Source: Marsupella aquatica (taxonomy: Eukaryota; Plantae; Marchantiophyta). Taken from it: a DNA stretch of 64,000 bases. The notes below the pieces were generated by a model. The model was not told where the DNA came from. It ran no database searches and was given only the letters and a program-made list of their open reading frames with translations. Below are positions 8,355 to 36,202 of the stretch, piece by piece. Within the stretch, counting starts at the first letter, position 1; every line of letters starts with the position of its first letter. The position numbers and the translations under genes are program-made. Where the stretch lies: contig OZ316896.1 in the NCBI GenBank assembly GCA_973895155.1, positions 20,588,052 to 20,652,051 on the forward strand, in the 5' to 3' direction.

Positions 8355-8371
8355 CTTGTCAATGGAAATTA

Positions 8372-8735
8372 GGGCCAACTCGCATGTCGACACTCCTTCA
8401 CAATGCGGCCCTTACCTCATGCGCCACTTCAGGGAAAAGTGTGATCTGCTATACCAATCAGAGAAACCAGTACAAAGTCATCGTTGATCGTTCTGTCAGC
8501 GACAGTCCAGGACGTGCTATGTATAGAAGCTTGAGGTTTGTTTTATTAGCAAAGTAGAGGTCAGGACCTGCTAGGGCCGGAAAGTTTCCGGACCTTGCCA
8601 TTGGGTCCCCACCAGACCTGCAGTCAGGCCTGCCAAAGGAGGGGCTTACGGGATTGCACAATTATCAAGTCTCATCACGACATGTTGCAGTCTAAGGGCC
8701 GCATTGTGAAGGACTCTCGACATGCGAGTGGGCTC
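8372..8735. mobile_element. PIF/Harbinger (Tourist-like) MITE just downstream of the ancestral NLR1 stop codon
   Basis: ~43-bp imperfect TIRs (GGGCCAACTCGCATGTCGACACTCCTTCACAATGCGGCCCTTA / TAAGGGCCGCATTGTGAAGGACTCTCGACATGCGAGTGGGCTC), TTA target duplication, and an empty site in the paralog (GGAAATTAAGGGATC at ~26273-26287). Confidence 0.9.
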
Positions 8736-10519
8736 TTAAGGGATCAAGTCTGTCGTGAGACACCTCACCAGAGAGAACAGTCAGCGCGCACAGATTGGTG
8801 TATTTGTCGCAGTTTCGCCACAAATCCTCCATAGTAGTCTGTATTATTTAATGTAGAGGCGGATGTGTACAATGGTTTTTAAATTTTAAATACACGTATG
8901 ATCGTTGTGCATCGAATCTCTATGATATGGACTCTTAAACCGAGATATTGCTGACATTCAAGGATTACATGGCAATTTTCGTCTAGAACATGTCTGCTCC
9001 AGTTCTTATTGTTATTTTATTCACTTGTACAACAGAGATCGTTGAGATTTACGCTACTCATGTGACACCTGCTCGAACTGATAGTCACTCCGCGTCATAA
9101 GAAAACTTGCTGGAGACTGCAGAAGCAAAATAAAATTCCTTGCCACCCCGATGACCGCCCTGCCCAGGCGAAGTGCCTTGAGACTGTCAAGGGATTCAGC
9201 ACACACGCCCTTTAGGTTTGCATTCGAACAAAATTTACCGTAAGTCTGCACGCTACTAAAGAAATGTACGACGAAGACTGAATTTTGAAGTCACTAAACT
9301 GCCACCTATGGCTGAGCGAGGTATGGCTTTCAACTCCACGATGGCCAGAATTCCAGGACTTTCAGGACTTTACATCACACTGATTAACAGGAAAAGCGTC
9401 TCATGGCATGCTTGAAGTCACCATTGTTATGACGAGACCTGCTGGCGTTTATTTCTTTTTCAGGTGGACCAAAGCATGTAGGCACAATGATAAGAGAATT
9501 CAATCGAACGGAGTCTGTATGTACTGGACGTTACCTCAGTGTGGAATGTAACTGTGGAAGTCATAAGCATTTAAGACCTTTTGCAGAACTAGCACTGAAG
9601 GCCAGTGATGGGAAAAGACTCTGTCAAGATTTTCCCTTCTCCGCAGTCTGTAGGATTTTTCCACATTTGAGATCCGGCCAGCTGCCCACGGAGATTCCTG
9701 GATTACTGAGGATGCGAGGAATTGGACAGAATTGTGTGCCCCCCACATCGTGGCCCCCGAAAGGATGGTTCATGCAGTTCAGAACTCCAACGTCATTTCA
9801 TTTTCTTGACAGTGCTCAACATGATTTTCTTCCGTTGAAAATGAACTCAGGTAACAAACTTTGAATGCATGTGTTGTGATTATCTGAAGGCATCGTAGGC
9901 GTCCATGGAAAAAAACACATATTTGCTTGGGATCACACGTGATTCCATTGAAAATAGACTTAAGTAACAAACTATGAATTGGTGCGTTGTGATTATCTTA
10001 AGGCATCGTAGGGGTCCACAAAAAAACACGAAAACAGGAATTTGCTCAGGATCGCAAATGTTGCAAGGGTCGCTGCCAAATCAATTTCCATCAAGCGATC
10101 ATGGGCCTGATTTACAGCTTCTAGAGGTCTGAAGATTAGTTAAAATTCACGCATAACCATCAGCTACTGCATCCACTGTCTTGTCGGAATACTGAGCGCT
10201 TCGGATACTGACCCTGAAACACAACTTGAATCACCAAGCGTCCCTTTGAATCCCTCCCATTACGACCCACCACTAACTGTTTGACTGAGAACCAGCGAGG
10301 CAAGCATAATTCAGTGCGTTGCTTGAGTATGGTGGACACTAATGTAATTCCATAAAATTTCCTGTCTATATGAACGCTGCCCTCTCACGAAGAACCTTCG
10401 ACAGTGAAATCGATCCTTTCAGCATGAATCAGTGCTCTTACTAAACCGTGTCGATGCCACTGGTTAGACATAAAAATCGAGCATGATATCAGGATAACTA
10501 CTATGACTAGCTAGGAAGT

Positions 10520-10780
10520 ATGGTCAGTCGCACTGGTGCCGACGAGATCACTGCCGTGAAGGACTTCTTTCTTGCCAACTCAGTTCTCGGTCTCCACTGG
10601 TCAGAGACATTCAACGAAGTAGAGAACCAGGCCCGGAACGAGGTCAAGCTGGAGATCGTCAGAGATTTTCCACCCCTCTGGCAATTTTTGCAAAACAGGG
10701 AGGGAGTCTCGAAAGGTTCAGTTATCGCTGTACATCGGCAGGTTTGGTTCAAGAAGCCGTTTCCATCACTCTGGCCATAA
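10520..10780 (+). other. Short 86-aa ORF of unknown function in the duplicated downstream block
   Basis: ORF MVSRTGADEITAVKDFFLANS... Two further copies at ~27919-28235 (frameshifted) and 28277-28540 (premature stop). No recognisable domain. Confidence 0.3.
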
Positions 10781-12914
10781 GTCCATCAAAGGACTTAAAA
10801 ATCCTTTGATAGAAAAATCATCAGAATTGACAATCATGAGGATCGTTATATATGCGAGCTCGTTATAGTAGCAAGCAGGAAGTTTTAAATTTGACATACG
10901 GGTTTGACTGGTAGATCTGAGTGTATCGGAAGTTATCTAGAGCAGTAGTGTCCCTGCAAATCGTTTAAGCCGTGCAATGCCATCCCCTTAAGCGGGATTG
11001 TTTTGCTGCAAAGGGAGAGGTCCAAGAATCTTGGTGAAGCTCGATGTATTGATTTGGCTTCAGATTTGGTTTGGTAGTAAAGGTTCAAAAACTTGTAGCT
11101 TGAAACTTCACAGTTGTTGCTAAAGCATTGATGATGACCTCAACGAGTTTATCTCGAAAAGAATCAAATTATAGGAAAAGGAGCAAACAAAATACAATGG
11201 ACAAGACTCAAAAGTGGACCAGAGACAACAAACACGAGAGGGCAAGTGCAAATTAACAGAGAAGGGACCCAGAGCTTTGTTTTGAAGCGTTTTTAAAAGT
11301 GACATACTCTTGCAAGTTCTAGTCTTTTTTTGTTTTTTGGTTTTTTTTAGGAAATGGTGAACCATTTATTAGAGAGGCCACTGAGGGGCAGAAAGCAAAA
11401 CTAATCCCCAAGGGCCAGAACTCACACCAATGAGGCTGCAGCACCAAAAGCGAGCGCATCAGACCACAAGGTCATCCTCAAAAGATAAGGGTTAAGAGGG
11501 AACAAAAACTGCCATTAGAAACTGACATGAGATGAGTCCATAGGCGGACTTTAGTACAGGTCTACAGCAGCACAATGCTCCAAAGTGAGCATGTGCCAAG
11601 TTGAAATAACTTTGTTTCAAATTGTGCACCAAGCCTTCTTCCAGCTTCTGGTGATTTGTTTTCCTGCCCTCTTTGAAAAGGAGGGGGGGGGAGTAAGTTG
11701 ATACTTTCACTACCAGAGAAGATGGTGAGGAGTTGATATACCCTAAGTTCTTATCTTTGCAATGTAGGTACACAGAGTAATTGTTTGGATTTTCACAAAC
11801 ACATGCCAGCAACTTCCAAAAGTGCAAGATGTTTTGCGCTTCTGCATGTACATGTCCAAAGTAATAAGTCTTGCAAGTTGTGATGCAATGCCATAAGTCC
11901 TAAGTCATATCAAGACGGGCACCTCAAGGAAAAGTTAGAACAAGGCCCGAGAAGTAGAATATACATGAGTGGGCTAACACAGTTGATTGACATGAAGTAG
12001 AGCCTGCAAGTGACATAAGCCCCTACCAGCCGATGCATCGATGGGATGAGATCGAGGAAACTTTGAGAGGAAATGATTATAAGCATGTCCCGTTCCCAGA
12101 GTCCCCAAATGAGCATCAAAAGCGTTATTGCCTGCAAAGATAATTGATTTGCATGCAAAGTCTCCGCCTGCTGAAATTTGACGCCAATATCCCTTTGATG
12201 TGCCACTTCCACAGGTGCCTGTATAAATGGGCCCCCACCAGTGTTTCCTTACTAGTAAATTTCAACACACATTTGCTACCAGGTGCAGGGCCTTGCCAAT
12301 GATACAAATGTGTTTAAAGACCCATAATTATAGTGACTTGTTCACCATAATCAACAGTCCATATTTGACTGTACAATCATAGATTTTACTTGTTATATAC
12401 TGTTACTGTACAAGTCAAGTACAAGATGATTGTTTGCAGCCAGAGGCTTCTCAACTCACCATAAGTGCAGCCTGCCCAAAATAAAAATGGATTCATCTGC
12501 CCCCACCTTGCACCAACACTATTCACTCCTGCTCTAGTGAATAGTGGGCCCTCCCATTTTTGCAAAAGTTTATCACAACATGTAAACTATTTTTTGAAGC
12601 CAATTTGTTGCTGGTTGTAGATCTTGCAAAGATCTATTTTTGGGGCAATATACAGACCCCTCTGATGAACAAATGAGATGACAGTGAGCACCTAAAATTC
12701 CCCAAAATGACCCAAATTGTCTGAAAACAGTCCATGTAAGCAGTTGTATGTGCCCATGCATTATAAACAATAGAAGCTACTGGTAACGCCTGAAATACAG
12801 ACAGTTGTAGTGTGGGGGGGAGACCACCATTGAGCAAGTTGTGCAACTGGCCATAACCGACTGGAAAATGTTGTTATATACTAGCTCAATACCCGTGCTT
12901 TGCCCAAAAGAAAT

Positions 12915-18500: not shown

Positions 18501-19138
18501 TTGTGTGTTCTTTTATTGCCCGTAGTATCACTTGTAGTAGTATGAAGATGCTCGTTGTAATTGGGACTCTCCAAAATTAGTGCTTGGACAGTACCTCTGA
18601 TATTTATTTGGTGGAAGGATGTTTCGTCTTTATAGTTTGGCTGCTTCTGATCTTCTTAATTTTGCTGGAACCTGAATTAATCTTCCAGACGGAACCTTTG
18701 CAAATTAATTCTGGAACAGAACGCAAAATAATTAACCAAATATATTGAGCAGGCTATCACAGTTGCAAAAAGCTCTGACTCCTACAAACGTGATCAACTT
18801 AGAGGAGAGGTGGACGCAAAATCTGAAGAGTCGTCCACTAAAATACACGGACCTCCATAGTCAAGACACCACTTACATCAGTAAACGCAAAATTAATCTT
18901 CCAGACGGAACCTCTTGACTTACCCTGGTAGACAGTGATGACGCATGTCTAAGTAAAGAACAACGCTCAACGTGAGATATACAACCGGAATTTTAAGAAG
19001 TTGGGTATAAGGCTCCTAAGCCCAACACGCTGGTATTTTTTTGCACCAGTGTGCGCACTGTAAGTTTACATAATTTCATCTCAACATCCAGGGTAAGTCT
19101 TCTCCACGAGCTGGTTGTAAGTAATATAAAGCAATTCT

Positions 19139-19378
19139 TGTTAGAACAGTATTACTCGTAAGCTGTATTACGTATTAGCCGCTGGCTGCTGCGGCTCCTA
19201 GTCTCTTTGTGCCGTTGCTCCCTTGTCGCTTATGCGCAACTCACGGCAGACAGATTAGCTGTTGATCTTAGGTTAGTCTGCTGGTCCGTTGATCCTCCCC
19301 TTTTCCCGGTTGCTCCAGCCTCTACTTAACCTGGCCTCCGGTGCGTCTTCCTCAGTACAACAGTGATAGATTCTAACA
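19139..19378. mobile_element. Solo LTR, family B, upstream of NLR2
   Basis: TGTTAGAA...TTCTAACA termini, perfect 5-bp TSD ATTCT, and absent at the paralogous site (~996-1000). Confidence 0.9.
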
Positions 19379-20654
19379 ATTCTGTCTCAGCTCCTTAGAC
19401 AGATGAGCCTCTAAGCCTCCCAATAGTTTAACACACAACATCGTCATCCAACAGATGACCACGGATGAAATCGGAATGCACAAGAAAAATGGGCCAAGGT
19501 GAAAAGTAATTCATCTGTTGACTTCCACAGCGAACGTCTCGTGGGTATTCCATTCGAGAGCATCAGTAAAAAGAAGTGAAGTAAATGACCAATGAACTCT
19601 TTCTATCAAACGGGAAACGAAACAGGACTGGAAACGGGGGGGAAGGAAAAAAATTGACGGACTTACGAGAAAAAGTAGACAAAAGTTGTCATGGGTCTCG
19701 AAGATTATCGGGGAACGCAGCTAGTCTCTATAACACACTGACGTTACGAGATACAATAGACAAAAATTATACTGGGTCTCGAAGTTTGGCACCGGGAACG
19801 GAGCTAGCTGATATTGTCAAAGTCCTTCCTTCGATTGCCGAGCGCTCCGGGCCTTCGTTCTCATGTATCTAGTCGAGCAGGTTCACAGTTGCAGCGCTCG
19901 GGCTATCCCCTTTGGTCTCAACATTCCGCGTAAAACCTTTTACACTAGCTGGAAGTATATATATATTCCGGAGCTCGGGAAAGGAAAGTCTTGAATGAAT
20001 GGGTACGTTATATTGATTACCAAATGGGTGAATGACGACCTTCCCAGAAATTAAGCTACAAAGAGTGCCGCTTCAGATCGAGACCGCGTTAGAGGACCTT
20101 TACGTACAGGAGCTGCGAATGTCCCCCCTGTAGCCGAATTCTGTGGGTTACTTAACGCTTAAAAAACACTTCAGCCGGCTCGAAATTGTTAAAAAAACAC
20201 TTTAAGCACGGGCCTGAGCATCCCGTTGTCACGTCTTACTTATCTGTTTTCTCCGCAGTAGGAGATGGATGCCCAGGCCCGTGCCCAGGAGAGAGCACAC
20301 CGGGTGTGTTACTTAACGCTTAAAAAATGCGGCTCCGAGGAGATCGGAGATTGGATTCGTTGATCAGGACGGACGGCATGCATTCTTGTAATTTACTTTT
20401 CCGGCTTTTGTGAAGAACATTCTACTGTCTTGTCAGAGTCCCCTTGAGTCGCTCATGCCGGGATATTTAGTCGTTCCTATATATGGGGCTCCTCCTGCCG
20501 CTAGACTTGCATCAAATCAATTGCTTGTGGTAAACCAGGAGTCCGAGATGTGCCTACTGATGGTGCTTGATTTCCTGTGCCAACATGCTCCAGCCGTTTG
20601 GCCGGGAAGGGAAGCCTTCTTCCTGATCGTGAAACTACAGTAAGGTCCAAGCCA

Positions 20655-21510
20655 ATGCAGCAACCGGTCGCCGAAAGCATTGGTGGGGCTCAGAATGAAA
20701 TTGAAGAGACGAAGCCGACGCTGCTGCCGGCCACCGGCAAAGTTGAGGAAGCCGAGGCCTCTACGGGAAGGCAGCAAATTTTACCGTCGGACACGATGTC
20801 CACAGATTTTGAAGAGATTTGTAACCTTCTGAAACTCAACCGGCTCGGAGATGTTGACGAGCTGCAGGAGGTTTTGAAAGTTATCGAGAAGGTGCGTACG
20901 TGAATGACAATTTAATTTACAGTCTGATCAGTTTCTGCCTCTCTCCAGATCTCGTTTTCCGTTAGTGGTGACTGTGTCAATGACTGAAGTCCTGTAATGC
21001 CCGGGAATGAGTCAGTCGTGACAGGCACTAACACTCCCTCAATATAGAAAGTATTGAATCGACAGGGAAGAAATTGTCCATCCGAACAAGCTCAAAATAA
21101 ACTGACCGGTGACATTAAAAAGTTCTTATGTTTCGCCGAAGAGTCTTCTTTTGTCCAATCGAAGGTCATTGCTACAGAAATGCTCAAAAACTGACCGTGA
21201 ATGTCTCCGTTAATCTCTGTCCTGAAGAAGAAACCTCCGATTTTGGCTGCCATTTGGACCGCAGGGAATTCAAGAAGCTTACGAGGAAGCGCAGTTAAAA
21301 AAAGTAAACAAGAAGTGGTGGGGGAAAAGAGTGAAGAAAGAACAAAGCGAGTTGATGAGCAAAGTGATAATTGCAAGTACCAACGATACAGACAAAGTCG
21401 AAAAAGCCATCAAAGGAGACAGCAAACTGCTGTGCAAAGTGACTGGCATCGTGAACGATACAGAGATAATGCTGCAAAAATTCAGCGAGATCGGCTATAA
21501 GCCGAGTTTG
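20655..21510 (+). pseudogene. Degenerate upstream exons possibly belonging to NLR2
   Basis: Exon-like segments 20655-20891 (MQQPVAES...LKVIEK|GT) and ~21048-21510 (ending KPSL|GT). The second is broken by stops and frameshifts. Linkage to NLR2 is an inference. Confidence 0.4.
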
Positions 21511-21857
21511 GTAATTACTTTCTTTGGGTTCTTGATTTTGTTTTCTCTTCCTCTGAGCTTCAGCTTTAGATCACAATGCCTGGTGTATGGAATGACAGAT
21601 CATTTGAAGCCTGGACTAGAAATCATGGATTATCTGCCTGTGGAAATGCTCAAAGCATCCCTTCACTCCTTGTTCAGCCAATAGATCGACAACACTGATC
21701 ATTGTTCACGGGAATGACTCGGGCATCAATTCACAGCATTTCATGTACCCCCAGAGGAAGCTCCCAAGCTCTCTAAAGCTAGATTTCTGGCATCCAGTCA
21801 ACAAGAGCTCTCCAGCCACTAACTATCTGTGTTCTGGAATGACAGACTTCTGGAAAC

Positions 21858-24800
21858 ATGGTAGCACGTGAATCATATACTCTACTACAACAATGTCTGA
21901 GCGGAATTGGAAACGTGCACTATGCTGCTGTAGCGCTTTCAATGGTTGCATATGTTTTAGAGCGAGTAAATCTGGTCAGCGACAATTCTGGAAATTGCTT
22001 GGCTCTTTTGGAAAGCATGTTAGAGCTTGGGAAGTGTATGGTCAAAGCGTATCCATTTCTCCCAGAAGATAGTGACCTGCTACAGAAGGTTCTCATAGCG
22101 ACAATCAAGGGGGTCTCCTTCTGTTGTAAATACACAAAGAGTGGCGCCTTGATAAGGTATCCGGATATGTGTTAACCCGCTTTTAGCATTAAAGCTCGTG
22201 CATTCTAGGGCAAATATTTTCTTGGAAGCTGGATTTTTGCCAAGGTCATTGTGGATTTGTATGGATTTAATTGATTCTTCAAGCGAAATCTAATGGTTTT
22301 CATTGTTTGTCTTGGACTGCCAGATTTGGCCTTGCAACTGTAAATAAGGAGCAATTTGATGCTCTCTCTAAGAAAATGAAAGAATTGTCTGAGCAGTTTA
22401 CAAATGCAAGTCTGGTAGCTCTTCTCAAGAGCATGGAGAGGACCGAGATGTCTGTTCAAGTGGTTCAAGTGAGCCAGACGTCTCTCAGTAACCAAGTGAC
22501 AGAGTGGTCTAAGCAGGTTCCAACAATATTGCCAAGTACTCCTGTGGCTCCACTGGAGGGTGAGACGTCTCTTAGCAAGAATATGACACAGTGTGAGTTG
22601 CGGGAAAACCCAATAATGGACTCTTTCGAACGTGAGCACAACACCAACACAGGTATGTCAAGCTTAGCATATCGGAAAAGCCTGCTTGAATTGAGATCGA
22701 CGTTATGCGTTATTTCTTTTGCAGATAGCTGAGCTCCCTATTGCTCAATTACTTTTTAGTTATCTTGTAGTGTCTGGACTGTACACATTATTTTAGGTGA
22801 TTTGTTTTCCCATCTAGAGCAACCCCTCATAATTCTTGTACTAGTGTGTCTCTTGACTTGCCCCTCAACTGTACTTGGACTTGAAGAGAAGGTGAATGCT
22901 ATCTTGGGGTTCTAGACAAAGGCTGGACTTAGCAAGTGTGTGTTCTCGCCTTGCAGGGTATGGATTACCAGAGGTGTCTGCCCAAGAGACAGAGTATTCC
23001 AATCTTGTGGTAGCAGACAGCTGTTCAGTCTCTAAATTGGTGAGTGAAGTTGCCAAGAGGATCTCGGCCCTGAAGGACCTCCTTTCAAACATTGCCAGAA
23101 TCTCTCTTGTAAAAGCGCGAGATTCATCTGAGACAAGCACTTTCTCATATTTCCAGGGTCATTTGACCCATCATGTATCATCAGTTAAGCTAGCACTTTT
23201 TATGGGCTTTATCAATAGTTACCTTTTTTCCTTCCCAATTTCAAAACATCTTGACCACTCCAATTCTTGGAACTGCAGGAGAAAGCAAGGATAGAAAACA
23301 AAACTTCTGTGGGAGGTGCTCGCCCTCAAAACTTCCAGCGTCTACCCCAGCACATGACTGACATGCACGGTGAAGAAGAAAAAATCCTAAGCAAGCTGGA
23401 AAGTGTGACAACACTAGGCTTGGTTGGCATGGGAGGACTAGGGAAGACCACGCGAGCAAAGGCGATCTTCAACATTTTGGGGCCCAAGTTTGATTATACT
23501 TGCTTTGTTTCAGACGTGAAACTTATCAAAGGGAGGGAGGATGATGTGAAGGAAGAGTTGTGGAAATGTTTGCATTTCCAAGGCAAGAAGGTTGGAGGAG
23601 AACGCAATTTGTCTATCTTGAGGGGTAAACAGTTGCTCCTGGCTTTGGATGACGTCTCTGATCGTGATATTAATGTTTTACTTGACTTAGCTGAAGATAC
23701 AGATCCAGCAAGCCGCTTCATTTGGACGTCTCGTGAGCATGACATTTTGAAGGACGTGGGCGCAATTCACGAGGTCCATTTCATGGCTGAGAACCATGCT
23801 AAATTGTTATTCATGAAGCATGCGTTTCCAGAGCCAACAATGCTAGATGTGGAGCTGGAAATTCTTGTTGAAGACGTTGTCAGGAAATGCGATGGGCTGC
23901 CTCTAGCCCTAGAGGTCGTGGGGAAGTACCTACGGGGGAAAGAGAAGCACGAGGTCTGGAAAGATACTCTAAGTGTGTTACAGAGAGCAGAAAAAGTGAA
24001 AAACTTGAACGACAGATTATCGGCGAAGTTGAGGCTGAGTTTTGACAGCCTTGGAGAGAAGGAGCAGGAGATTTTTTTGGATGCCACAAACTTCTTTTGT
24101 GAGAGCTGGGTCTGGACATTGGGTAAAGCCAAACTGGCATGGAGAGCAGCTTATGGAGAGGTGAGTGAGTTACTGTGGCAAACCTTGGTAGACACGTCTC
24201 TTGTCTATGATGTGGGAGAGGATGACTATATCAAGGTGCATGAGCAACTCCGAAGTGTTGGAAGAATGATTGCATCTGAGCCTGAGCACAACGGCAAGTA
24301 CCAGGTTTGGATGTGCAATAGAAATGGGGAAGTTGAGTTGCTTGGAACATCAGATGCATCGCATGGAAAGGTATTTAATTAAAACATCTTAGTTTGCAAT
24401 TCGCATCCATTAGCCAAGATTCCAAGTAAACATTTGCAAAAGTTTACATTTGAACTGGGTCAATTTTTGGCAAAGGGTTTGTTGAAGTGGGAATGAGTGC
24501 CATGTGTGGCTCTTTTCCTTCTTTTCTTTGGGCCCCCAGTCGTGTCATGTAAGGTGGGTGCAAGCACCTCCGATGGAAAAATGCTAACCTAGGAAGCATC
24601 TGGGCAGACGTGTTTGGGTGGTTCAATAAATCTGAGGATGAGCCACAGAAGGCGAGTTTGTTTCAATTGCTGATCCATCTTCACCCAAAAGTTGCGGTAG
24701 TGTTAACCTAAAGGTTTTTTTCATTTGGAATTGCAGGAAGTTCGTGCCCTGCAGGTCCACCATGAGAATGGGGTTATTCAGGTCCAGAGTTCAAGAATGG

Positions 24801-26263
24801 CTTTCCAGAATACGAAGAAGTTGCGGTTCTTGGAAATGAACGACGATATTCAGATTGTTGGAGCGACGGATGATACATCGCTACCAACCCAGCTTGTCTT
24901 GCTGAGCTGTCATGGTCAGGTTCTCTTCAACCCTGCCCTCCAAAAAGATCTGGTTGGTCTGAAACTATGGGGCATGGAGGACGTGCCGACTTCTATTGGG
25001 CAGCTCTCCAAATTAGGCCATCTTGAAATAAAATTGAATGGCGCAAGATGCCATTCCCTACCCAGATCCTTCGGGCAACTCAGCGCGTTGCGACACCTCA
25101 GATTGGGATCTTGTGAGGGCTTGCAAAGCTTGCCTGAGTCATTCGGGCAACTCAGCGCTTTGCGACACCTTACATTCTGTGAATGTCCTGATTTGGAAAG
25201 CTTGCCTGAGTCCTTCGGGCAACTCAGCGCTTTGCGACAGCTTCAATTCTATGGGTGCAGGTCACTCGGAAGCTTGTGTGAGTCATTTGGACAACTGAGG
25301 GCGTTAGAGCACCTTGAATTCGAAAGGTGTGACTTGTTGGGACGGTTGCCTGAATCCTTCGGGCAACTCTCTGCCTTAACCCGTCTTCAATTCAGACATT
25401 GCCCCAGCTTGAAACTCCTCCCTCAATCTTTCGGACAAGTCTCCAGCTTAGAACATCTTTCATTTGCCTCCTGTGACATACAATCTCTGCCCGAATCTTT
25501 TGGGCTGCTCTCCGCTCTAACCCGTCTTTTTTTCTCCTCCTGCCCAATAAAATCTCTTCCCGAAAATTTCGGACAACTCTCCAGCTTAGAACGTCTTCAA
25601 TTCAGACATTGCCCCAGCTTGAACCTCCTCCCTCAATCTTTCGGACAAGTCTCCAGCTTAGAACATCTTTCATTTGCCTTCTGTGACATACAATCTCTGC
25701 CCGAATCTTTTGGGCTGCTCTCCGCTCTAACACGTCTTTATTTCTCCTCCTGCCCAATAAAATCTCTGCCCGAAAATTTTGGACAACTCTCCAGCTTAGA
25801 ACGTCTTTCAGTCTTGTCCTGCCCGATAGAATCTCTGCCCGAATCTTTTGGTCAGCTCTCCGCCCTAACCTCCCTTGTATTCGCTCCTTCGCCCTTTAGC
25901 CATACATGCTCATGGACTCTGCCAAACATATCAACTCTAATGAATCTCCGATACCTGCAATTATGGGATTATTCTGTCACGACTATTCCGGACTGCGTCA
26001 GGAGCTTGAAGTCATTGCGCTGTGTAGAGATCATTAGGGCAAAACCTATTGTCGACTGGCCCGAATGGTTGGTGCCCAGTCAAAACGTGGAGGTTTCCTA
26101 TCACCGGGGACTGGAAAACATCTACCAAATTTTCCACGTGCACGATGGAATTCTTTTCCTAATTGAGGAGGGTCCAGGAATGAATTACTATTCGCAAGAC
26201 CTTGATGGGTTCTTCCATGCAAATAATCTCAAGACCGACATATCCAAGCTTCTGGACCTTTGA
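21858..26263 (+). CDS. NLR2: MLKL/Cbl-N-like helical-bundle N-terminus, hydrolase relic exon, NB-ARC and LRR
   Basis: Exons 21858-22156, 22324-22652, 22957-23108, 23279-24370 and 24737-26263 join in frame at GT-AG junctions. The N-terminus (VAYVLERVNLVSDNSGNCLALLESMLELGKCM) resembles MLKL/MCAfunc-type four-helix bundles. NB-ARC motifs: GMGGLGKTT, LLALDDV, GLPLAL, VHE. The LRR is intact. The true start may lie upstream. Confidence 0.85.
25382..25803 (+). repeat. 210-bp in-frame tandem duplication (3 LRR units) in NLR2
   Basis: The 70-aa block RLQFRHCPSLKLLPQSFGQVSSLEHLSF...LPENFGQLSSLE occurs twice with few substitutions. Confidence 0.9.
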
Positions 26264-27876
26264 CTTGTCAATGGAAATTAAGGGATCAAGTCTGTCTTGA
26301 GAAAGGCACCAGAGAGCGCAGTCAGCGCGCACAGATTGGTGTACTTGTGGCAGTTTCGCCACAAATCTGTATTATTCATTGTAAAGGCTGATGTGTATAA
26401 TGGTTTTTAAATTTTAAATACACGTATGATCGTTGTGCATCAAATATCTATGGTATGGACTCCCAAACCGAGATGTTGCTGAAATTCGAGTACTACATAG
26501 CAATTTTCGTCTAGGAGTTCATGTCTGCTCCAGTTCTTACTGTTATTTTCTTCACTTGTACAACAGAGATCTTTGAGATTTACGCTACTCATGTGACACC
26601 TGCTCGAACTGATAGTCACTCCGTTTCTTAAGAAAACTTGCTGGAGACTGCAGATGCAAAATAAAATTCCTTGCTACGTACCCCGATGACCGCCCTGCCC
26701 AGGCGAACTGCCTTGAGACTGTGAAGGGATTCAGCACACACGCCTCCAGTAGGGAAGGTTTAGCAAACACATTCGAACAAAATTTACCGCAAGTCTGCAC
26801 GCTACGAAAAAAATGTACGACGAAGAGGAAATTTTGAGGTCACTAAACCACCACGTATGGCTGAGGTATGACTTTCAACTCCACGATGGCCAGGATTTCT
26901 GGACTTTCTGGACTTTACATCACACTGATTAACAAGAAAAGCGTCTCCGGGAGCGTCGCATGGCATGCTGGAACTCACCATTGTTATGACTAGACCTGCT
27001 GGCATTTATTTCTAATTCAGGTCGACAAAAGCATGTAGGCACAATGATAAGAGAATTTGTACATCCTAGACGTTACCTCAGAGTGGAATGAAACAGTGGA
27101 AGTCATAAGCATTTTAAGACCTTTAGCTGAAGTAGCACTCAAGGCCAGCTAGTGACAATAAAAGTCTCTGTCAAGATTTTCGCTTCTCCGCAGTCTGTAC
27201 GGTTGTTCCACATTTCAGATCAGGCCAGCTGCCCACGGAGATTCCTGGTTTACTGAGGGTGCCAGGAAATGGACAGAATTGTTCCCCCCAAATTGTGGCC
27301 CCCGAAAGGATAGTTCATGAAGTTCAGAACCCCGACGTCATTTCATTTTGTTGACGGTGCTGAACATGATTTCTTCCATTGAATGAACTTAGGTAACTAA
27401 CATTGAATTGGTGTGTACGTTGTAATTATCTTAAGGCATCGTAGGCTTCCGTGAAAAAACACGAACTTGCTTAGGATCGCAATGTTGCAAGGGTCGCTGC
27501 CAAATAAATTTCCATCAAGCGATCATCGGCCTGATTCACAGGTTCTCGAGGTCTGAAGATGAGTTAAAATTCGCGCATCACCATTATCTACTGCATCCAC
27601 TTGTCGAAATACTGAGCGCTTCGGATACTGAGCCTGAAACACAACTTGAATCACCAAGCGTCCCTTTGAATCCCTCCCAGTACGACCCACCACTTAACTG
27701 TTTGAGTGAGAACCAGCAAGGCAAGCATGGATCAGTGCGTTGCTTGAGTACTCTTACGGTGGACACTCATGTAATTCCATAAAATTTCCTGTCTATATAA
27801 ACTGCCCTCTCACGAAGAACCTTCGACAGTGAAATCGATCCTTTCAGCATGAATCAGTGCTCTTACTAATCCGTGT

Positions 27877-28575
27877 CGAGCATGATATCAGGATAACTAG
27901 TATGACTAGCTAGAAAGTATGGATACTTCTACGTCAGTCCCACTGGTGCCGACGAGATCACTGCGGTCAAGGACTTCTTTCTGGCCAATTCAGTTCTCGG
28001 TCTCCCCTAGTCAGTCAGAGACATTCAACGAAGTAGACAACGAGGCCCGGAACGAGGTTGAGCTGGAGATCGTCAGGGCTTTTCCACCCCTCTATGGCAA
28101 TTTTTACAGAACAGGGAGGGAGTCTGGAAAGGTTCAGTTATTGCTGTACATCGGCATGTTTGGTTCAAGAAGCCGTTTCCATCACCCTGCCCACAAGTCG
28201 ATGGAAGCACTTAAAAATCCTTTGATAAAGAAATCGAGCATGATATCAGGATAACTACTATGACTAGCTAGGAAGTATGGTCAGTCCCACTGGTGCCGAC
28301 GAGATCACTGCCGTGAAGGACTTCTTTCTGGCCAATTCAGTTCTCGGTCTCCGCTGGTCAGAGACATTCAACGAACTAGAGAACCAGGCCCGGAACGAGG
28401 TCAAGCTGGAGATCGTCAGAGCTTTTCCACCCCTCTGGCAATTTTTGCAAAACAGGTAGGGAGTCTCGAAAGGTTCAGTTATCGCTGTACATCGGCAGGT
28501 TTGGTTCAAGAAGCCGTTTCCATCACTCTGGCCATAAGTCCATCAAAGGACTTAAAAATCCTTTGATAGAAAAAT
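27877..28575 (+). repeat. ~355-bp local tandem duplication in unit 2
   Basis: TCGAGCATGATATCAGGATAACTA...CTTAAAAATCCTTTGATA occurs twice, against a single copy at ~10478-10812. Confidence 0.85.
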
Positions 28576-31226
28576 CATCAGAGTTGACAATCATGAGGAT
28601 CGTTATATATGGGAGCTCGTTATAGTAGCAAGCAGGAAGTTTTAAATTAGACATACGGGTTTGACTGATAGATCTGAGTGTATCGGGAGTTATCTAGAGC
28701 AGTAGTGTCCCTGCAAATCGTTTAAGCCGTGCAATGCCATCCCCTTAAGCGGGATTGTTTTGCTGCAAAGGGAGAGGTCCGAGAATCTTGGTGAAGCTCC
28801 ATGTATGGAATTGGCTTCAGATTTGATTTGGTATTAAAGGTTCAAAACTTGTAGCTGAATGAAACTTCACAGTTGTTGCTAAAGCATTGATGATGAATTC
28901 AAGGAGTTTATCTCAAAAATAATCAAATTATAAGAAAAGGAGCAAACAAAATACAATGGACAAGACTCAAAAGTGGACCAGAGAGAACAAACACGAACCT
29001 CAAAAGCGAGGGCAAGTGCAAATTAATAGAGAAGGGACCCAGAGCTTTATTTTGAAGAGTTTTAAAAATTTTACTCTTGCAACTAGTTTTTTTTTGTGGG
29101 TTTTTTTGGGTTTTGTTTTTGGTGCAATGATGAACCATTTATTAGAGAGGCCACTGCTGTGTGGCACAAAGCAAAACAAACCCCCAAGGGCCAGAACTCA
29201 CACCAACTGAGGCTGCAGCACCAAAAACCAGCCCATCAGACCACAAGGTCACCCTCAAAAGATAAGGGCTAAGAGGGAACAAAACCTGTCATAAGAAAAC
29301 TGACATGAGATGACTCCATATATAGGCGGATCTTAGTACAGGTCTACAGCAACACAATGCTCCAAAGTGAGCATGTGCAAGTTGAATTAACATTGTTTCA
29401 AATTGTGCATATAGCATGTTAGTTCTAAGACATAGCTATTAATTTAACTTATTGACAATAATGTCAATTGTATCCTCAGTATGTAAACTACAATTAATTT
29501 AAATAGGTTATCAAATAGCAGTTATAGCATCGTATTCAAGTGTATTAAAACAGTGATTCAAAGACATAAATGGAATAAAAGTGCACACCTTTAAAGTGAA
29601 GAAACTACCTTACTTTTTTGGTGAAAGACAAGTACATAATTTATAAGTCAATGTACCTTAGGGGTATAGTATTTTGTGGTTGAGAGAGAAGTACCCTAGC
29701 TTTGTACTCTAGCTTAGTTTGTACTCTACTTTTAGGCCCTATTGAGAGATTCACTGTTTAGGTGACACCTGTTAACCTCTAAACCATAAGGGTTGGAAAG
29801 TTTTTCACCAATGGAGATATAACCTACAAAGCATAGCTAGTTTCTGTACTGGTGCATCCTGGTGAGTCTAACCTTGTCATGGAATAGAGAAGGAATGACA
29901 GCATAAGAATTTATCAAATACACAATAAGCTATTCATAGTAAAACCTAAAACACAGTGACGGACCAAACGGGAAGTGTGACCACCCAACGAGAAGTGTGT
30001 TTTGAATTTTGTCGAAAACGGCAAAAAATTCTCATAAATTTATCTAATAAACATGAATTCTCATAAATTTATCTAAAAAACATGATTCAAACTCGAGATA
30101 CTTTCTAACCAAAACTGGCAAATCTCTATAATTTATAACTTCCTAACACTTCATCTCTAAAATGAGGGAAAACTCCGAAACACCTAAAACAACGATTTCC
30201 AAGTCCTCTCTATGAAAGCTCAATCAAGGCGTCTCAAAACACACCAAAAACAAAAAAACGCCGATCGTCAATCCAGTAGTGCAAAACAAAATGGGATACC
30301 GCGTATCCCACTTCGCATTCATTCAAAGAAATCAATCAAAAACATGCTAAGTCAACTGTTTGGTGGACATATTTACCAGAAAAGGTAAACCGGATTTCAA
30401 TATTTACTAAGCATAAAAACACCTACCATGAAACATTTCCTCCAAACCATGGTTGATCCTCACAGTCAGTTAAGTTAACCCAAGCGCATTTTGGGTTGGA
30501 ACGCAATTTGAATACGAAGTTAGATCCAAGTATCCAATCTGGTATTTAATCTCCAAATACTCGATCGTCGTGCCACGCGCCTGGAAATTGAGATTTGAAT
30601 ACCAATAGGGATCCACGTATCCCATTTTTCTGAACAAGTCCAAAAATAACCCTCTCAAAATCAAGGTCCACCACTCATGTTATATAATGTTACCGTACAA
30701 GTCAAGTAGAAGATGTTTGCAACCATAGGCTTCTCAACTCGCCATAAGTATGGCCTGCCCAAAATACAAATGGATTCATCAGCCCCCACCTTGCACCAAC
30801 ACTATTCACTCCTGCTCTAGTGAACAGTGCCCTCCCATTTTTGCAAAAGTTTCTCACAAAATATATACTAATTTTTGAAGCCAATTTGTTCCTGGTTGTA
30901 GATCTCGCCAAGATCAATGTATTGGGCAATAGACAGACCCCTGTGGTGAACAGATGAGATGACGGTGAGTGCCTAAAATTCCCCCAAAATGACCAAAATT
31001 GTCTGAAAACAGTCCATGTAAGCAGTTGTACGTGCCCATGCATTATAAACAATGGAAACTACGTAGTGGTAATGCATGAAATACAGACAGTTGTAGTCGG
31101 AAGGGAGGACCACCATTGAGCAAGCTGCGCAACTGGCCATAACAGCCTGGAAAACGTTGTTGTATATTATACATATACTGTTTTTTGTTGTTTGCCTTTT
31201 TGCATTGATAGAAGTAAGTTGAAGGA

Positions 31227-31798: not shown

Positions 31799-34700
31799 TG
31801 CCCCTAAAACTACACTTGCTAGAGAGAACTGTTGTCTCCTCACCATCTGAGGCAGTGGATTTCTTGCTCAACTGCCTGCCACCCACTTCCTGCTGCACTT
31901 CATCAGCCCGGGCAGCAGAATGTACATTTGCAAAGTATATCTAACATGCTCAATTGTCTGATGCCCACTGCCCATCCTAGTCAACTATTAGGACTTTCAA
32001 CCTTAAATTGAAATTTTGAGTGGGGATTTGCAGGCATTCCGAGAGGTGACAGCAGTCAGAGCATTGAGGCTAGGCATGGAACAAACATGAGCAACACAAT
32101 GTACTGTTAGGCTGCCTTGTGCTCCACCTTATGGGCATGGAGCCGGGCATGGAGCAAGACAGATAATGGGTGCTTCTCTAAAAGTATATTCATACTAGGG
32201 GGAAGGGATGTCCGGAATGGAGATGAAAAATATTAGAGAAGGGACTAGAGAGGTGAGACTGAGGCAATGCACTGCGAATTAAAACCTCTGCACAAAATCA
32301 AATGAAATCATTAGTCACTTTGTGCTGGTTGAGTTGGAAAGTCTGTTGGCACATTTTTCTTGCTCACCATTTACTGTCAGTGCTGCATTCATTAGTCAGT
32401 TTGTGCTCTGGTCCAGGGTTAAACAAGAAGCCTTAAATGATGAGTAACAAGCCCATACTTTAGGAACTCTAGCCAAAAAATCAGAAAAACAACGAAAAAG
32501 TCAAAACAAGTGCCAAAATTAGCACCTATTTTAGAACAAAAATATGGAGCGAACAAAATATGACATAAACTAGCTATGTTTTGACGCCTAAAAATGACCA
32601 AATTCATCTGAAGTTACATTCCACCAATAAATGACCTCAAATACAACACTATTATCTACAATGGTCTCACAATTACACGAGCTGTCTCTTGAAACAATAA
32701 CTAAATCACCTCCAAAAGCCATTGTCATTTAAAAACCAGAAAATAAATTACTACAACTTAACCTGATACACATTATTGTGAAAAAAAGACAAGGAGAATA
32801 GAAATGACACCATCTAATTGAATTGGAACACAACCCACTAAGAAAATATTAAACTACAAATTTCTCAAGAAACTTTAACCATGAATTCATGAATAAGTGG
32901 TAAAGGCATTTTGAAAATTTGAAAAATTTCAAGTTATCCATGTTTTTCAATGGTAATGTCACAAACAATAACTACTTTTCATTACTCAGATCCAGAAGTC
33001 CTCAATTCTTGAAACGAAATATCCCTAGATTTATCTCCTAGCGGGGTTCTAGCTGATCCATTCTCTTGTTCTTGCTCTTTCTCTTCTGCCAAAAATTCAG
33101 TCAATCAGATTTTGATTCGATCTACTGTCTTTTTGTACAATGTATCAGATTTTGTCAACATGAAGTTGTAAGCAAAAACAGTTGTTGAAGATAAATCAAG
33201 CTCTTGGTGAAACCATATTGGTTTCAAAGTTCCTTTCCCACGACCACTTTTCTTCTTTTCGTAGTTGAAGACTTCTGGTAAGTACTTGGCTTTCCAAGGA
33301 TCTGACCTGGTTTTTGCAGCATGCCATAAAACATAAATCATTTTTGGAATGTTGAACTCGTCGCGCTGGTCAATTCTTTCCACCTTGGCCACCCAAAATG
33401 TTTCCGATTCTTCTCCAGCAACAGAAATATAAGTGTTGACTTCAAGATCCGAAAAGTCTCCTTCCATATTCTCCTTCTTTGCATCTATCTTTCCTTGATT
33501 CCGATAAGGACCCACGTATATATCTCTGGTAGGTCCGTATACTCTCTCTTCAATTTCCTCTTCATTGACAAGGACTCTGGGAACTTCAGCAGCAACAGCA
33601 ATCTCCCCTTGGGAACGTGGCCATTGAAAAGGGAAAATCAATGGTCTTTGATCAAGGAGCAAAGATTTATTCAATTCCCGTTGCTCTTCAAAAAACATTC
33701 TCCACCAGTTCACTTCCTCTTATGAGAATAAAGTTTCAACTGCAAGTATTCCCTTTTGAATCTCATTTAACGAATCATCCATCTCCTTCAAAGTCATTCT
33801 TGAAGAACTAGACATATTTGGTTGAGTCCTTGTAACGTTCTTATCCCCCTTTTTGAAAAGGGGTAATCCGGGAGCACAACCCATCACCTTTTCTGGCTCC
33901 TCTTCCCTCAAAAATTTCACGCCTCCGTCAGGTTTCCAAGTTGAGTCTGTGGAAAACTTCTTCCCCCATTGGGTTGGAACTTGATCTTCCAACTTGTCAA
34001 ATGCAAATTTGTACTGGTGGTGGAAGGTAACATTTCGAATCCTTTCAATGACTAAAGGTGGATCTGAGAAGGCATATTGACGGAAATCATATGTTTCCTT
34101 TAAAAGAGTGATATTTGGTTGGGTTGATATGATTCACAAATAATATCACATAGGCTTTTGTATGTGAATGCCTTAAACCTTGCTAGTCGTTTAGAAAATC
34201 GACTGAACATTTGATCTATTTGGTCGTGTGTGTGTCCAACCAACAAGAATCCTAGTTTGATTTTCCGAAAAACCTTTCTTCGAATCAACATATGAAGATA
34301 GGCAAAGAGTAAATTATTTTTATTTTCTCTACTGGTATTATCAAGTTGAAGATAGAGAACAGGCGGCAAGCCACCAGGCTTTTCTTCCCATTCGTGAAAC
34401 ACCCTTTGCAGGATTGTGACTGTCAAGTTTCCATCATTATGCAATACAGGATAATTAAGAAACACTCTTGAAAATAGTGCACCATTGAAAACCAGGCATC
34501 CGACAACGTGCATTTGGATCAAACATGTTTCGTCCACCGATTTTGGGGGCCGCGGCCAATGAGGCAACCTTGTCTTCTTCTGATCCATCCCATCAATGAC
34601 AACTCCCAAATATTTATCAGGATTTGAAAAACATTTCTTACGATGCTTCGCGAGTTTCTCACATTCTTTGGATTGTTGGTCTCTATGTTTTTGTAACATA

Positions 34701-35911
34701 ATTCCCCTCGCCCTGGAAAAACAACACAAGGAAGTTTTGGTGCTCACCTAGGTAGGCAAACACTAAGTAACCAGGGAAAATACAAGATAGAAGATAATTT
34801 TGCCGAGTTTCATGTTGGTGTAACCTGGTACCTACCTGAAGGTAGGGATATGCAAACAACCAAAATGGGACTATTGTGGCGATTCCTAAAATACCGATGT
34901 ATACAAAGTGGATAGCTGGTAGTTCATAGATTCACCACCATAGCATGGATGTCCAGAAATTCACAAATGTGCAAGAATTGGGTTAATGTAGGACAATGGA
35001 AAACTCCAATGATAAGTTTGGAGTTAAATTTTCAAATAATTTAAGCCAATTTCTTATCGGTAACCTAACCTAACACAAGGACACTACACCTTATGAACTT
35101 CTTCGTTCCACTGCTGATGTTCATAGACCAGCTCCTGTTCAGTAGGTGGTCGAGTGCTTCTTTTGCTTGGGATTTGCTTCGACATTTTGCTGGCATCAGA
35201 GTGCTGGTTACATTCTAGATTGCACTATGCTTCAATCACCGTTGATGCTGGTGCTACGTGGTCTACTCGCTTGCTCAGCATAATCATTTTCTTGTTCACG
35301 TTTTTGGACCTTATCCTCCATAGCCCGCAGGCTCCATGCGCTCCGTCCTTTGCTCTCATGCGCACCGTCGCTACTCTCGATGTCAGAGCCAATGTCTGCT
35401 CGACACATCAAGAAATGAAGAAAACTAACTGTCTTGGCGACCATGATCGTGACCATAACGACAAGCTTGCGGTTACCTCGATCCCTGCCTGAGGATCCGA
35501 TCCAATGTCTGCTCGACACGCCAAAGAGATGACGGAACACAAACTGATCGACTAGCCAAGAGCTCATCAGGACCCGACTCGAGACTTCCATTTGCGCCAC
35601 TCTCTGTTTGAATTCAAACTTTGAATTCGCCGTCCTCTCTATTTAAGACGATCGATACTCTCCTGTGGATTCATTCTGCTCTCTCTCGCATTGGAATTGC
35701 ATTTCAGGATTCTCGAGCTCCTTGCAATTTTACAGTTCACCTATCTTCTTAGCGTTCAGCTCGATCAAGACTCAATCGTTGAGAGCCTGTATCTCGTCGT
35801 TGATGTTCGTGGCGAATTGAGCTCAATTCGTTGTGGGTGTCAGTTCTTCGTAGATATTTTGGGCGAATTGCGAGGAGATTCAGAGGAGGAATTGTTACTT
35901 GCTCCGAGGAG

Positions 35912-36058
35912 ATGGCACCCAAGGATGTAGCAGTTGCAGCGACTGAAGGCGCTACGGGAGCGAAGAAGGGTCGAGGCATGCCGAAGGCTGTGAAGAGGCA
36001 TCCCGCATTGAAGGAGGTCGGTGGAGCAGATGTAGTGGGATCGAAGAAGAAGCACAGA
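35912..36058 (+). other. Short Lys/Ala-rich MAPK-start coding fragment, possibly a captured gene 5' end
   Basis: MAPKDVAVAATEGATGAKKGRGMPKAVKRHPALKEVGGADVVGSKKKHR, preceded by TATTTAA (~35640) and a CT-rich leader. No downstream exon is visible. Confidence 0.3.
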
Positions 36059-36202
36059 GTTTGTTTAGTGAATATAATAATTATGCAACAAAGGATTAAT
36101 ACAGCTCTTACTATGAACTACGTGAGTCCAACTAACATAATAAATTACCTGATCATAACCTGCCTTTGGCTAAGCACTAGAATAATCAGATTGCCAATCA
36201 TG

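Follow-up and report, generated by a model that had tools for sequence, protein, structure and literature searches.

NLR2 (20796-26263, + strand), the second of two NLR genes held by an 18-kb tandem duplication in the 64-kb window (the whole stretch of DNA analysed here), reads from its sequence as an intact seven-exon frame encoding a helical front end, a relic hydrolase exon, an NB-ARC domain, and LRRs. The main reading is that a body from the hydrolase-NLR clade has acquired a four-exon helical front and retains a decayed hydrolase exon as a predicted linker; together with the history proposed below, this is given a probability of roughly 0.6. What the locus preserves is likely the trace of an old trade in signalling domains between receptors of two classes, not a recent local swap. 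In plants, it is the N-terminal domain that defines an NLR class, and change from one class to another has so far been argued mainly from intron positions. NLR2 bears on that question, holding both a recognisable piece of the hydrolase domain that was replaced and an NB-ARC domain nested among those of hydrolase-NLRs.

Self-BLASTN resolves two collinear blocks in the duplication, both on the + strand: an upstream block, 861-2426 in copy 1 and 19003-20333 in copy 2, with 80-87% identity (84-89% in re-aligned segments), and a downstream block, 5103-12880 and 22966-31166, with 85-92% identity. Between them, each copy has a middle segment of about 2.6 kb that is not common to both (2427-5102 and 20334-22965), and the front ends of NLR1 and NLR2 differ there. 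A preliminary description of this DNA had reported tandem paralogs with common upstream DNA and different N-terminal domains, which self-BLASTN and domain searches confirm. It had also called the NB-ARC-LRR portions near-identical, which in the NB-ARC exon amounts to 91.7% of nucleotides and 86.5% of amino acids. In the LRR exons, NLR1 and NLR2 differ by indels of 42, 72, 141, and 9 nt and by a 2-nt frameshifting gap in NLR1. Both genes are plant NLRs, with an NB-ARC domain, a P-loop, and C-terminal LRRs: Pfam NB-ARC is found in NLR1 (exon 5416-6507, + strand, E 8.8e-29) and in NLR2 (exon 23279-24370, + strand, E 4.7e-27), the P-loop GMGGLGKT is present in both translations, and Pfam detects LRRs in NLR2 (LRR_14, E 7.4e-41) and in the first part of NLR1 (E 1.3e-10), after which the NLR1 frame shifts.

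NLR1 is the hydrolase copy, and its hydrolase domain is complete by profile, spanning positions 1-269 of a 271-position liverwort hydrolase profile. Exon 1 (3683-4351, + strand, start uncertain) matches profile positions 1-217 at E 8e-78 and contains the nucleophile position, in the motif GYCFGG. The Calypogeia fissa proteins P0005 and P0010 cover 3728-4351 of this exon in tblastn, and Pfam Abhydrolase_6 matches it at E 0.0019 only, under the family cut-off. Exon 2, the last hydrolase exon (5078-5245, + strand), carries the conserved His, has phase-0 borders at both ends, and matches profile positions 217-269 at E 3e-13. Its start had previously been set at the VPEASS codons, and is moved to 5078 (phase 0) by the C. 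fissa hydrolase-NLR P0005, which aligns exactly with 5078-5245 in tblastn (59% identity, E 3.9e-12). In a careful 15-row hydrolase tree, the NLR1 hydrolase groups with P0005, P0015, P0011, and P0014 (support 96/93).

The LRR exon of NLR1 (6866-8354, + strand) reads as frameshifted: compared with NLR2 it is 2 nt short at 7451, and a stop follows at 7493; its open reading frames, 6866-7495 and 7209-8354, are in different frames, and the first stop is reached after 852 aa. Contigs from sequencing runs list no insertion at 7451, and loose ends there resemble the NLR2 version in four of four runs, which counts neither for nor against the gap. NLR1 looks to be decaying, given this gap, a hydrolase branch length of 0.79 against a median of 0.41 in the same 15-row tree, a Cys at the nucleophile position where 11 of 13 C. 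fissa hydrolase-NLRs have Ser, and one contig of run X2 that is short of 13 nt at 5511 and passes from 5549 directly to 5584, over the codons of the P-loop.

The seven predicted exons of NLR2, all on the + strand, form a coding sequence of 3753 nt (1250 aa) with zero internal stops, and every intron is GT-AG. Exon 1 (20796-20891), with the predicted start MSTDFEE..., resembles the N-terminus of C. fissa P0001 by eye and ends at a GT donor in phase 0; the helical-module profile did not reach this exon. Exon 2 (21265-21510), a helical N-terminal extension, is matched by P0001 residues 26-103 in tblastn and by positions 32-104 of the helical-module profile (E 2e-7). Exon 3 (21846-22156), the helical core with four predicted helices, is 60% identical to P0001 residues 106-210, and exon 4 (22324-22652), a long helix followed by a linker, is matched over 22322-22477 by P0001 residues 209-258 in tblastn and has CAG/GTATGT, in phase 1, as its best donor. 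The relic (exon 5, 22957-23108) follows, and then the NB-ARC exon, which is 63-65% identical to that of P0001, and an LRR exon (24737-26263) with one intact 508-codon frame running to the stop, within the open reading frame 24707-26263. The helical module had earlier been described as starting at 21858 and as having one or two exons. The Met at 21858 is internal to exon 3, and the module comprises four exons from 20796, the two upstream ones being recognised by homology to C. fissa.

Contigs from the four sequencing runs that cover the locus pass through the introns and have no splice joints, behaving as DNA, and contigs of runs X1 and X2 cross the helical/relic junction at 22965/22966. Contig depth is raised over 22812-23079 in runs X3 and X4, where summed contig depth is not copy number. 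It is very improbable that the helical exons make up a small gene of their own and that NLR2 proper is an N-terminally truncated NB-ARC-LRR. Such genes have parallels in C. fissa P0098, a helical-only model of 296 aa, and in the many short members of the family in the database, but P0001 and P0002 are single models joining the module to an NB-ARC domain, NB-ARC lies behind the helical domain in 17 of 33 scanned family representatives, and all seven exons of NLR2 are linked in phase without a stop.

The relic was previously aligned with NLR1 hydrolase exon 2 and said to have lost the conserved His while remaining in frame, and this is upheld on each count. It has 50 codons, AG and GT borders, and phases compatible with the neighbouring exons, and its translation shares 21 of 47 residues with NLR1 exon 2 (40.8 bits, BLASTP). 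The significance of this alignment was checked with a profile built from the C-terminal segments of 13 C. fissa hydrolase-NLRs, without any sequence from the window, and searched against 2149 six-frame pieces of the window. NLR1 exon 2 was matched at E 1.7e-19 and the relic at E 1.7e-4, and the next piece stood at E 2.3. The conserved His is present in all 13 C. fissa segments and in NLR1, and Ser occupies that column in the relic, within the uninterrupted 1250-aa chain. Sequence comparison thus identifies the relic as a decayed copy of the last exon of the hydrolase. Of the 271 positions in the full hydrolase profile, only 224-267 find a match in NLR2, and profile searches recovered no further hydrolase remnant in the NLR2 locus and no helical remnant in the NLR1 locus. 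Having no nucleophile exon, and Ser where the His should be, NLR2 is predicted to be incapable of hydrolase chemistry.

The relic is predicted to be spliced in as an in-frame linker exon. The splice sites flanking it are the strongest among those scored, and among eight scored acceptors its own, TTGCAG/G, has the tract richest in pyrimidines. In the splice models, the intron before the relic is in phase 1 and has a new acceptor; the strongest donor of exon 4, at 22652 (score 8 of 9), is in phase 1, as are three further donors with a score of 7, and this phase fits the relic acceptor and not exon 6. The 143 aligned bases of the relic contain no indels, against four gap columns in the 170 bases of intron 2, and a C. 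fissa protein with the helical module, P0036, takes in a relic of its own. All of this tells against the relic being an unspliced intron fossil with no role in the protein, the mRNA joining the helical exons straight to the NB-ARC exon. That alternative is considered doubtful, though it draws on several observations: the C. fissa models P0001 and P0002 go from the helical module directly to the NB-ARC exon and have no relic, and exon 4 has three phase-0 donors (22459, 22468, and 22495, scores 6-7 of 9) that could skip the relic in frame and leave a linker near the C. fissa length. Likewise, the dN/dS of the relic is 0.91, with no sign of purifying selection, and the relic region of the P0036 structural model has low pLDDT (36-61). 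The open frame of the relic was set aside as evidence of use, being weak evidence given that the frame is still open in 21-43% of neutral simulations and that open reading frames of at least 50 codons cover 30% of random points in the non-genic part of the window.

The affiliation of the NLR2 body was examined with a careful tree of NB-ARC domains. Its 43 rows were what remained of 51 candidates once 8 with short alignments had been removed. NLR1 and NLR2 group together (support 100/99) as sister to the C. fissa helical pair P0001 and P0002. These four form one group (100/99), to which P0005 is sister, and which is nested in a clade of 18 rows that includes 14 hydrolase-NLRs (100/98). The same helical domain is borne by seven gymnosperm NLRs, whose NB-ARC domains stand apart in a clade of their own (100/100), and forcing all 10 helical rows into a single clade costs 74 lnL units (p-AU 1.4e-30). 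Judged by its sequence, the NLR2 body is of the liverwort hydrolase-NLR type. In the splice models, introns between hydrolase and NBS and between NBS and LRR are predicted to be in phase 0 in both NLR1 and NLR2, as is the intron within the hydrolase domain in NLR1, and phase-0 introns at these three positions are given as class marks of hydrolase-NLRs by Xue et al. 2012 (PMC3352924). The remaining hydrolase piece, together with an NB-ARC domain nested among hydrolase-NLRs, supplies the direction and breakpoint of the class change and supports the direction proposed in the preliminary description, from hydrolase-NLR to helical NLR.

The same description had the swap made within this tandem pair by replacement of the first exon or exons, which the data do not support. 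An older stratum (22966-23303, + strand, corresponding to 5103-5440) comprises the relic, intron 2, and the first NB-ARC codons and has a sliding identity of 58-82% between the copies, which rises to 82-100% at about 5442 and stays there to the end of the NB-ARC exon, except for a dip to 70-80% near 5942-5967. By segment, identity is 67.8% in the relic and 71.4% in intron 2, compared with 84-89% in upstream non-coding DNA and 92-93% in the NB-ARC exon and intron 3, and dS is 0.445 in the relic versus 0.164 in the NB-ARC exon. If the 5′ hydrolase exons of copy 2 had been replaced on site by helical exons after duplication, the relic would be local and recent, in keeping with the common flanks on either side of the unshared segment and with the position of the relic exactly at the right-hand border of homology, 22966. 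One recent duplication, however, predicts equal identity in the relic and intron 2 (68-71%) and in the non-coding flanks (84-93%), and in C. fissa the helical module is also seen on P0001 and P0002, members of the sister NB-ARC clade, so such a replacement is unlikely, and the helical-plus-relic arrangement was probably not created in this pair. The timing is drawn from one other annotated species and from identity strata, which repeated gene conversion could also yield.

C. fissa contains a second instance of the arrangement in P0036, in which a segment from the hydrolase C-terminus comes after the helical module (E 1.6e-8; among 63 proteins searched, the runner-up scores 0.19). P0036, a model of 399 aa with no NB-ARC domain, may be a mis-joined annotation. 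Its relic and the relic in the window have 9 of 47 residues in common, fewer than each has in common with hydrolase-NLRs, and a single origin of both relics is therefore not established. Used as a query, residues 105-325 of P0036 retrieved only P0001, P0002, P0036 itself, and P0098, all from C. fissa.

A recent event may also have run in reverse, the 5′ part of a helical-type duplicate (2427 to about 5440) being overwritten by an ectopic hydrolase-NLR. NLR1 would then be a chimera and NLR2 would show the ancestral state of the pair, and the lineage could still have arisen long ago by a hydrolase-to-helical change. This is entertained only tentatively. The NB-ARC domain of NLR1 is sister to that of NLR2, in a group whose other three members are helical, the block of high identity begins at the conserved motif ARPQNFQ, a natural crossover point, and NLR1 is the degenerating copy. 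Against these points, the NLR1 locus has no helical remnant, the grouping of its hydrolase with P0005 and three others does not conflict with the place of P0005 as sister to the four NB-ARC domains, and an old tandem pair homogenised by two-sided conversion fits the same data.

Under the main reading, hydrolase exon 1 of an ancestral hydrolase-NLR likely gave way to the helical exons, probably through recombination within the phase-0 intron by which the hydrolase domain is divided. The final exon of that domain would have been left behind, since it is proposed to have lain downstream of the breakpoint. This exchange likely predates the split of this genome's lineage from C. fissa, or else it recurred in both. 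The tandem pair would be a later layer, in which duplication or gene conversion made the flanks and NB-ARC-LRR portions 84-93% alike, with its junction placed at the first conserved NB-ARC motif, at about 5440/23303. The inferred role of NLR2 is that of an intracellular immune receptor, in which the LRRs would sense, the NB-ARC domain would act as a switch, and the helical N-terminal domain would be the output.

The hydrolase-NLR class of liverworts (HNL or Hyd-NLR; Xue et al. 2012, PMC3352924; Chia et al. 2024, PMC11218826) is represented in NLR1 by its full architecture and in both genes by the placement of NB-ARC in the class clade and by the predicted phase-0 introns between hydrolase and NBS and between NBS and LRR. 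NLR2 departs from the class in having no nucleophile exon 1, only the last fifth of the hydrolase domain, and Ser in place of His, and NLR1 departs from it in the Cys at the nucleophile position (GYCFGG versus G-H-S-x-G-G) and the frameshifted LRR exon. Exon shuffling has been proposed as an origin of NLR classes, with a call for more direct evidence (Xue et al. 2012, PMC3352924). The breakpoint in NLR2 maps to the class-specific intron within the hydrolase domain, as intron-mediated domain exchange predicts; what differs here is a leftover exon that marks the exchange. Full-text literature searches, in the portions of papers they returned, gave descriptions of the hydrolase and Cbl-N classes and no report of such a relic. 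A bolder and rather speculative extension is that the helical module is an exchangeable cassette that captures hydrolase-NLR bodies of leafy liverworts via the hydrolase-splitting intron, the relic being kept as a translated linker because it ties an output domain of foreign origin to the NB-ARC switch. If true, a leftover exon would for the first time document how one NLR class became another. Two further questions could be put to this locus as a natural test: can the body of a hydrolase-NLR drive output through a helical domain, and does it need the remaining hydrolase segment as a linker?

The helical domain belongs to a family that occurs in non-flowering plants, with bearers in C. fissa, Ginkgo, Cryptomeria, and Taxus; a search with exon 3 gave 62 representative proteins at E<=1e-3. 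The spider protein P0041 was rejected as a member, because a 32-residue part of the query matched it seven times, a pattern treated as a repeat artefact. AlphaFold2 models exon 3 as four helices (mean pLDDT 71.6, pTM 0.40), and in the P0036 model helices occupy residues 109-260. Like the Cbl-N-type and CC-type four-helix-bundle NLRs of non-flowering plants (PMC11218826, PMC12512272), NLR2 has a helical N-terminal domain of four predicted helices before NB-ARC-LRR. It differs from them in that its predicted bundle stands behind about 115 residues and is linked to Cbl-N, RPW8, or CC by neither Pfam nor fold searches, and it differs from the gymnosperm bearers of the same domain in setting that domain on an NB-ARC of hydrolase-NLR type.

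The helical exons in the window match no Pfam family, and the structure comparison with MLKL, Cbl-N, and RPW8 suggested in the preliminary description gave no specific fold match to set beside its proposed change from a putative enzymatic to a possible membrane-targeting domain. Foldseek searches of PDB with the P0036 and exon-3 models found no match at E<=0.001, and the best VIA-align hits (Z 9.9 and 7.4) were generic helical proteins under the level that the tool's documentation treats as informative for helical bundles. A possible likeness to MLKL and HeLo-like executioner domains is hinted at by protein kinases behind the same helical domain in Taxus (5 of 33 scanned representatives), although these kinase domains are closer to receptor-like kinases than to that of MLKL. 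The MLKL leads themselves are all below significance: searching solved structures with a profile brings up the human MLKL N-terminal domain at no better than E about 0.15, Pfam MLKL_N is hit by 2 of 45 family members in one survey and by 2 of 31 in another (best E 0.0031, under the cut-off), and Atlas clusters carrying Goodbye or MLKL_N, at 0.89-0.91, are a weak lead. An MG start followed by Cys or Ser is a typical acylation signal. The liverwort helical proteins have no MG start, and by eye at least 10 family members begin in this way, those named being from gymnosperms.

The relic-bearing helical NLR in this Marsupella aquatica window is a real feature, and NLR2 with its predicted relic exon is a good molecular fossil of a change in NLR class. 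Self-comparison of the window finds two collinear blocks, 861-2426 with 19003-20333 and 5103-12880 with 22966-31166, in a tandem unit of 18.1 kb whose copies are unlike at 2427-5102 versus 20334-22965. NB-ARC and LRRs are encoded by NLR1 and NLR2 alike, so that self-comparison and domain matches agree with the preliminary description of tandem paralogs with a common upstream region and NB-ARC-LRR but unlike N-termini. The homology border at 22965/22966 is spanned by sequencing-run contigs. The DNA is of eukaryotic nuclear type, with GT-AG introns, and the closest database relatives of the NLR2 NB-ARC exon are in the leafy liverwort Calypogeia fissa (65% and 61% identity), with Riccia and seed-plant TIR-NLRs among the lower-ranking matches (35 proteins in all, E ≤ 1e-20). 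Tandem repeats of ~60 nt lie within the common upstream block, at 1300-1560 in copy 1 and 19640-19800 in copy 2.

An alpha/beta-hydrolase domain has its first exon in the unshared part of copy 1. A full profile built from 14 liverwort hydrolase-NLRs, with the window sequence excluded, matches NLR1 at 3599-4387 (profile positions 1-217, E 8e-78) and 5042-5269 (positions 217-269, E 3e-13), and in copy 2 matches only the ORF around the relic, exon 22957-23108 (positions 224-267, E 0.004). With a short profile of 13 hydrolase C-terminal segments, the relic ORF reached E 1.7e-4 among 2149 six-frame window pieces, versus 2.3 for the next piece, a significant match that agrees with the proposed kinship to NLR1 hydrolase exon 2. 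Translations of the relic and NLR1 exon 2 (5078-5245, phase 0 at both borders and aligned over exactly that range by a C. fissa hydrolase-NLR) are identical at 21 of 47 residues. All 13 C. fissa segments and NLR1 retain the conserved His; at that position the relic has Ser, as in the preliminary description of a lost putative catalytic His. The fragment is about one fifth of the hydrolase fold and no domain by itself.

The C. fissa proteins P0001 and P0002, which carry the helical module, align to NLR2 at 21235-21507, 21846-22160 and 22322-22477, and then at 23255-24370. The relic frame is open, as first described, but these alignments enlarge NLR2 beyond the smaller gene then proposed. The first residues of P0001 and P0002 look, by eye, like an exon starting at 20796, which the helical-module profile did not reach. 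The predicted model has seven exons (20796-20891, 21265-21510, 21846-22156, 22324-22652, 22957-23108, 23279-24370 and 24737-26263), all with GT-AG introns, in a chain of 1250 codons with no internal stops. Locus contigs in all four runs (X1-X4) read straight through the introns.

As judged from sequence, the chance that the relic is included in the transcript is roughly two in three. The best upstream donor, 22652 (CAG/GTATGT, 8/9), is in phase 1, as are three more donors scoring 7, matching the phase of the relic acceptor, which has the richest pyrimidine tract among eight scored; the relic has no indel between copies. These features count against the less probable alternative that the relic is skipped and the helical exons are joined without it, which three phase-0 donors within exon 4 could allow and which is favored by the absence of the relic from P0001 and P0002, a relic dN/dS of 0.91, and an open frame expected in 21-43% of neutral simulations. 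At 23080 and 23082, within the relic, runs X1, X2 and X4 have C and A, and the window and X3 have T and C, changing Asp-Leu-Leu-Ser to Asp-Pro-Ile-Ser; the relic of a third C. fissa protein, P0036, also has Asp-Pro-Ile-Ser at about the same place. A second variant haplotype across 22917-22994 keeps the frame open. At 22617-22698, X2 and X4 contigs have 14 other letters for 80 nt across the end of exon 4 and the donor, a replacement that would remove donor 22652 in those individuals.

NLR2 is intact throughout in the predicted model, unlike NLR1, whose LRR exon (6866-8354) has a 2-nt gap at 7451 relative to NLR2, every other indel being a multiple of three. This gap, neither supported nor contradicted by run contigs, splits the frame and leads to a stop at 7493. 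The NLR1 nucleophile motif is GYCFGG, its hydrolase branch is long in the tree, and on sequence grounds the gene looks like a pseudogene or truncated allele. In one X2 contig, 13 nt are missing at 5511 and the sequence skips from 5549 to 5584 over the NLR1 P-loop codons; this contig could represent a paralogue, or one more broken allele from a different individual or labelled organism.

In an NB-ARC tree of 43 rows (8 of 51 candidates with short alignments were left out), NLR1 and NLR2 group together (100/99), their sister being the two helical C. fissa proteins P0001 and P0002, and all four (100/99) are nested in an 18-row clade (100/98) with 14 hydrolase-bearing members. Seven gymnosperm helical-domain NLRs form a distant separate clade (100/100). 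A constraint uniting all ten helical rows, grouped by N-terminal label and tested after the tree was seen, was rejected (lnL difference 74, p-AU 1.4e-30). The predicted NLR2 model retains phase-0 introns of the hydrolase-NLR type, listed as hydrolase-NLR marks by Xue et al. (PMC3352924). Together with the fragment nature of the relic, these results support the suggested direction of exchange, from hydrolase-NLR to helical NLR, with a putative breakpoint in an intron inside the hydrolase domain.

The exchange had also been placed within this tandem pair, and here the identities between copies point elsewhere: 84-89% in four upstream non-coding segments, 91.7% in the NB-ARC exon and 92.7% in intron 3, versus 67.8% in the relic exon and 71.4% in intron 2. 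dS is 0.445 for the relic (an estimate from just 33.5 synonymous sites) versus 0.164 for the NB-ARC exon, and high identity starts at ~5442/23305, within the NB-ARC exon at a conserved ARPQNFQ stretch. The identity strata and dS indicate that the N-terminal modules, relic and intron 2 have been separate far longer than the rest, and the class-change fossil is probably older than this pair. Flanks and body may have been homogenised later, or a 3-kb patch may derive from a third paralogue. At least four C. fissa genes carry the helical module (P0001, P0002, P0036 and P0098), 84-90% alike over the searched stretch, and in P0036 it continues into a hydrolase C-terminal segment that retains the His (E 1.6e-8). 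The NLR2 and P0036 relics have only 9 of 47 residues in common, and both show, by eye, Leu after the conserved Lys (Pro in all hydrolase-NLRs) and Glu three residues on, from which a single origin of both is possible.

Exon 3 of the helical module (21846-22156), used as a query, retrieved 62 representative proteins among 1.84 billion at E ≤ 1e-3, with named carriers in C. fissa, Ginkgo, Cryptomeria and Taxus. A Pfam scan of 33 exon-3 relatives found NB-ARC behind the helical domain in 17, LRRs only in two, protein kinase in five, unrelated families in one and no family in eight. AlphaFold2 modeled exon 3 as four helices (pLDDT 71.6), and the model of P0036, a C. fissa proxy, has a long fifth helix after the four. 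The bundle had been considered possibly membrane-targeting, with MLKL 4HB, Cbl-N and RPW8 proposed for comparison; neither Foldseek nor VIA-align gave a specific match, and matches to MLKL_N, all below threshold, are only leads. Hydrolase-NLRs and Cbl-N-type four-helix NLRs are already described from non-flowering plants in two earlier papers (PMC11218826; PMC12512272); the predicted helical domain of NLR2 may or may not be of the Cbl-N type. The sieve-element-occlusion C-terminal domain SEO_C lies at the far end of P0065 and P0070 (the latter from Ginkgo), both of them NLR-like and bearing this helical domain, and SEO_N matches 3 of 45 helical-family members (best E 1.1e-5).

Downstream of the NLR pair, a row of long minus-strand ORFs at 33100-40650 probably represents a large DNA transposon; it includes DUF7869 (E 2e-45) and matches Transposase_21 weakly. 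ORFs at 57445-59151 gave no matches and adjoin a plus-strand ORF at 59748-60314 that matches N6/N4 DNA methyltransferases over their C-terminal part, with Pfam N6_N4_Mtase at E 1.8e-8 and PHROG methyltransferase families reaching E 9e-13, a match that is unusual in a plant nuclear region.
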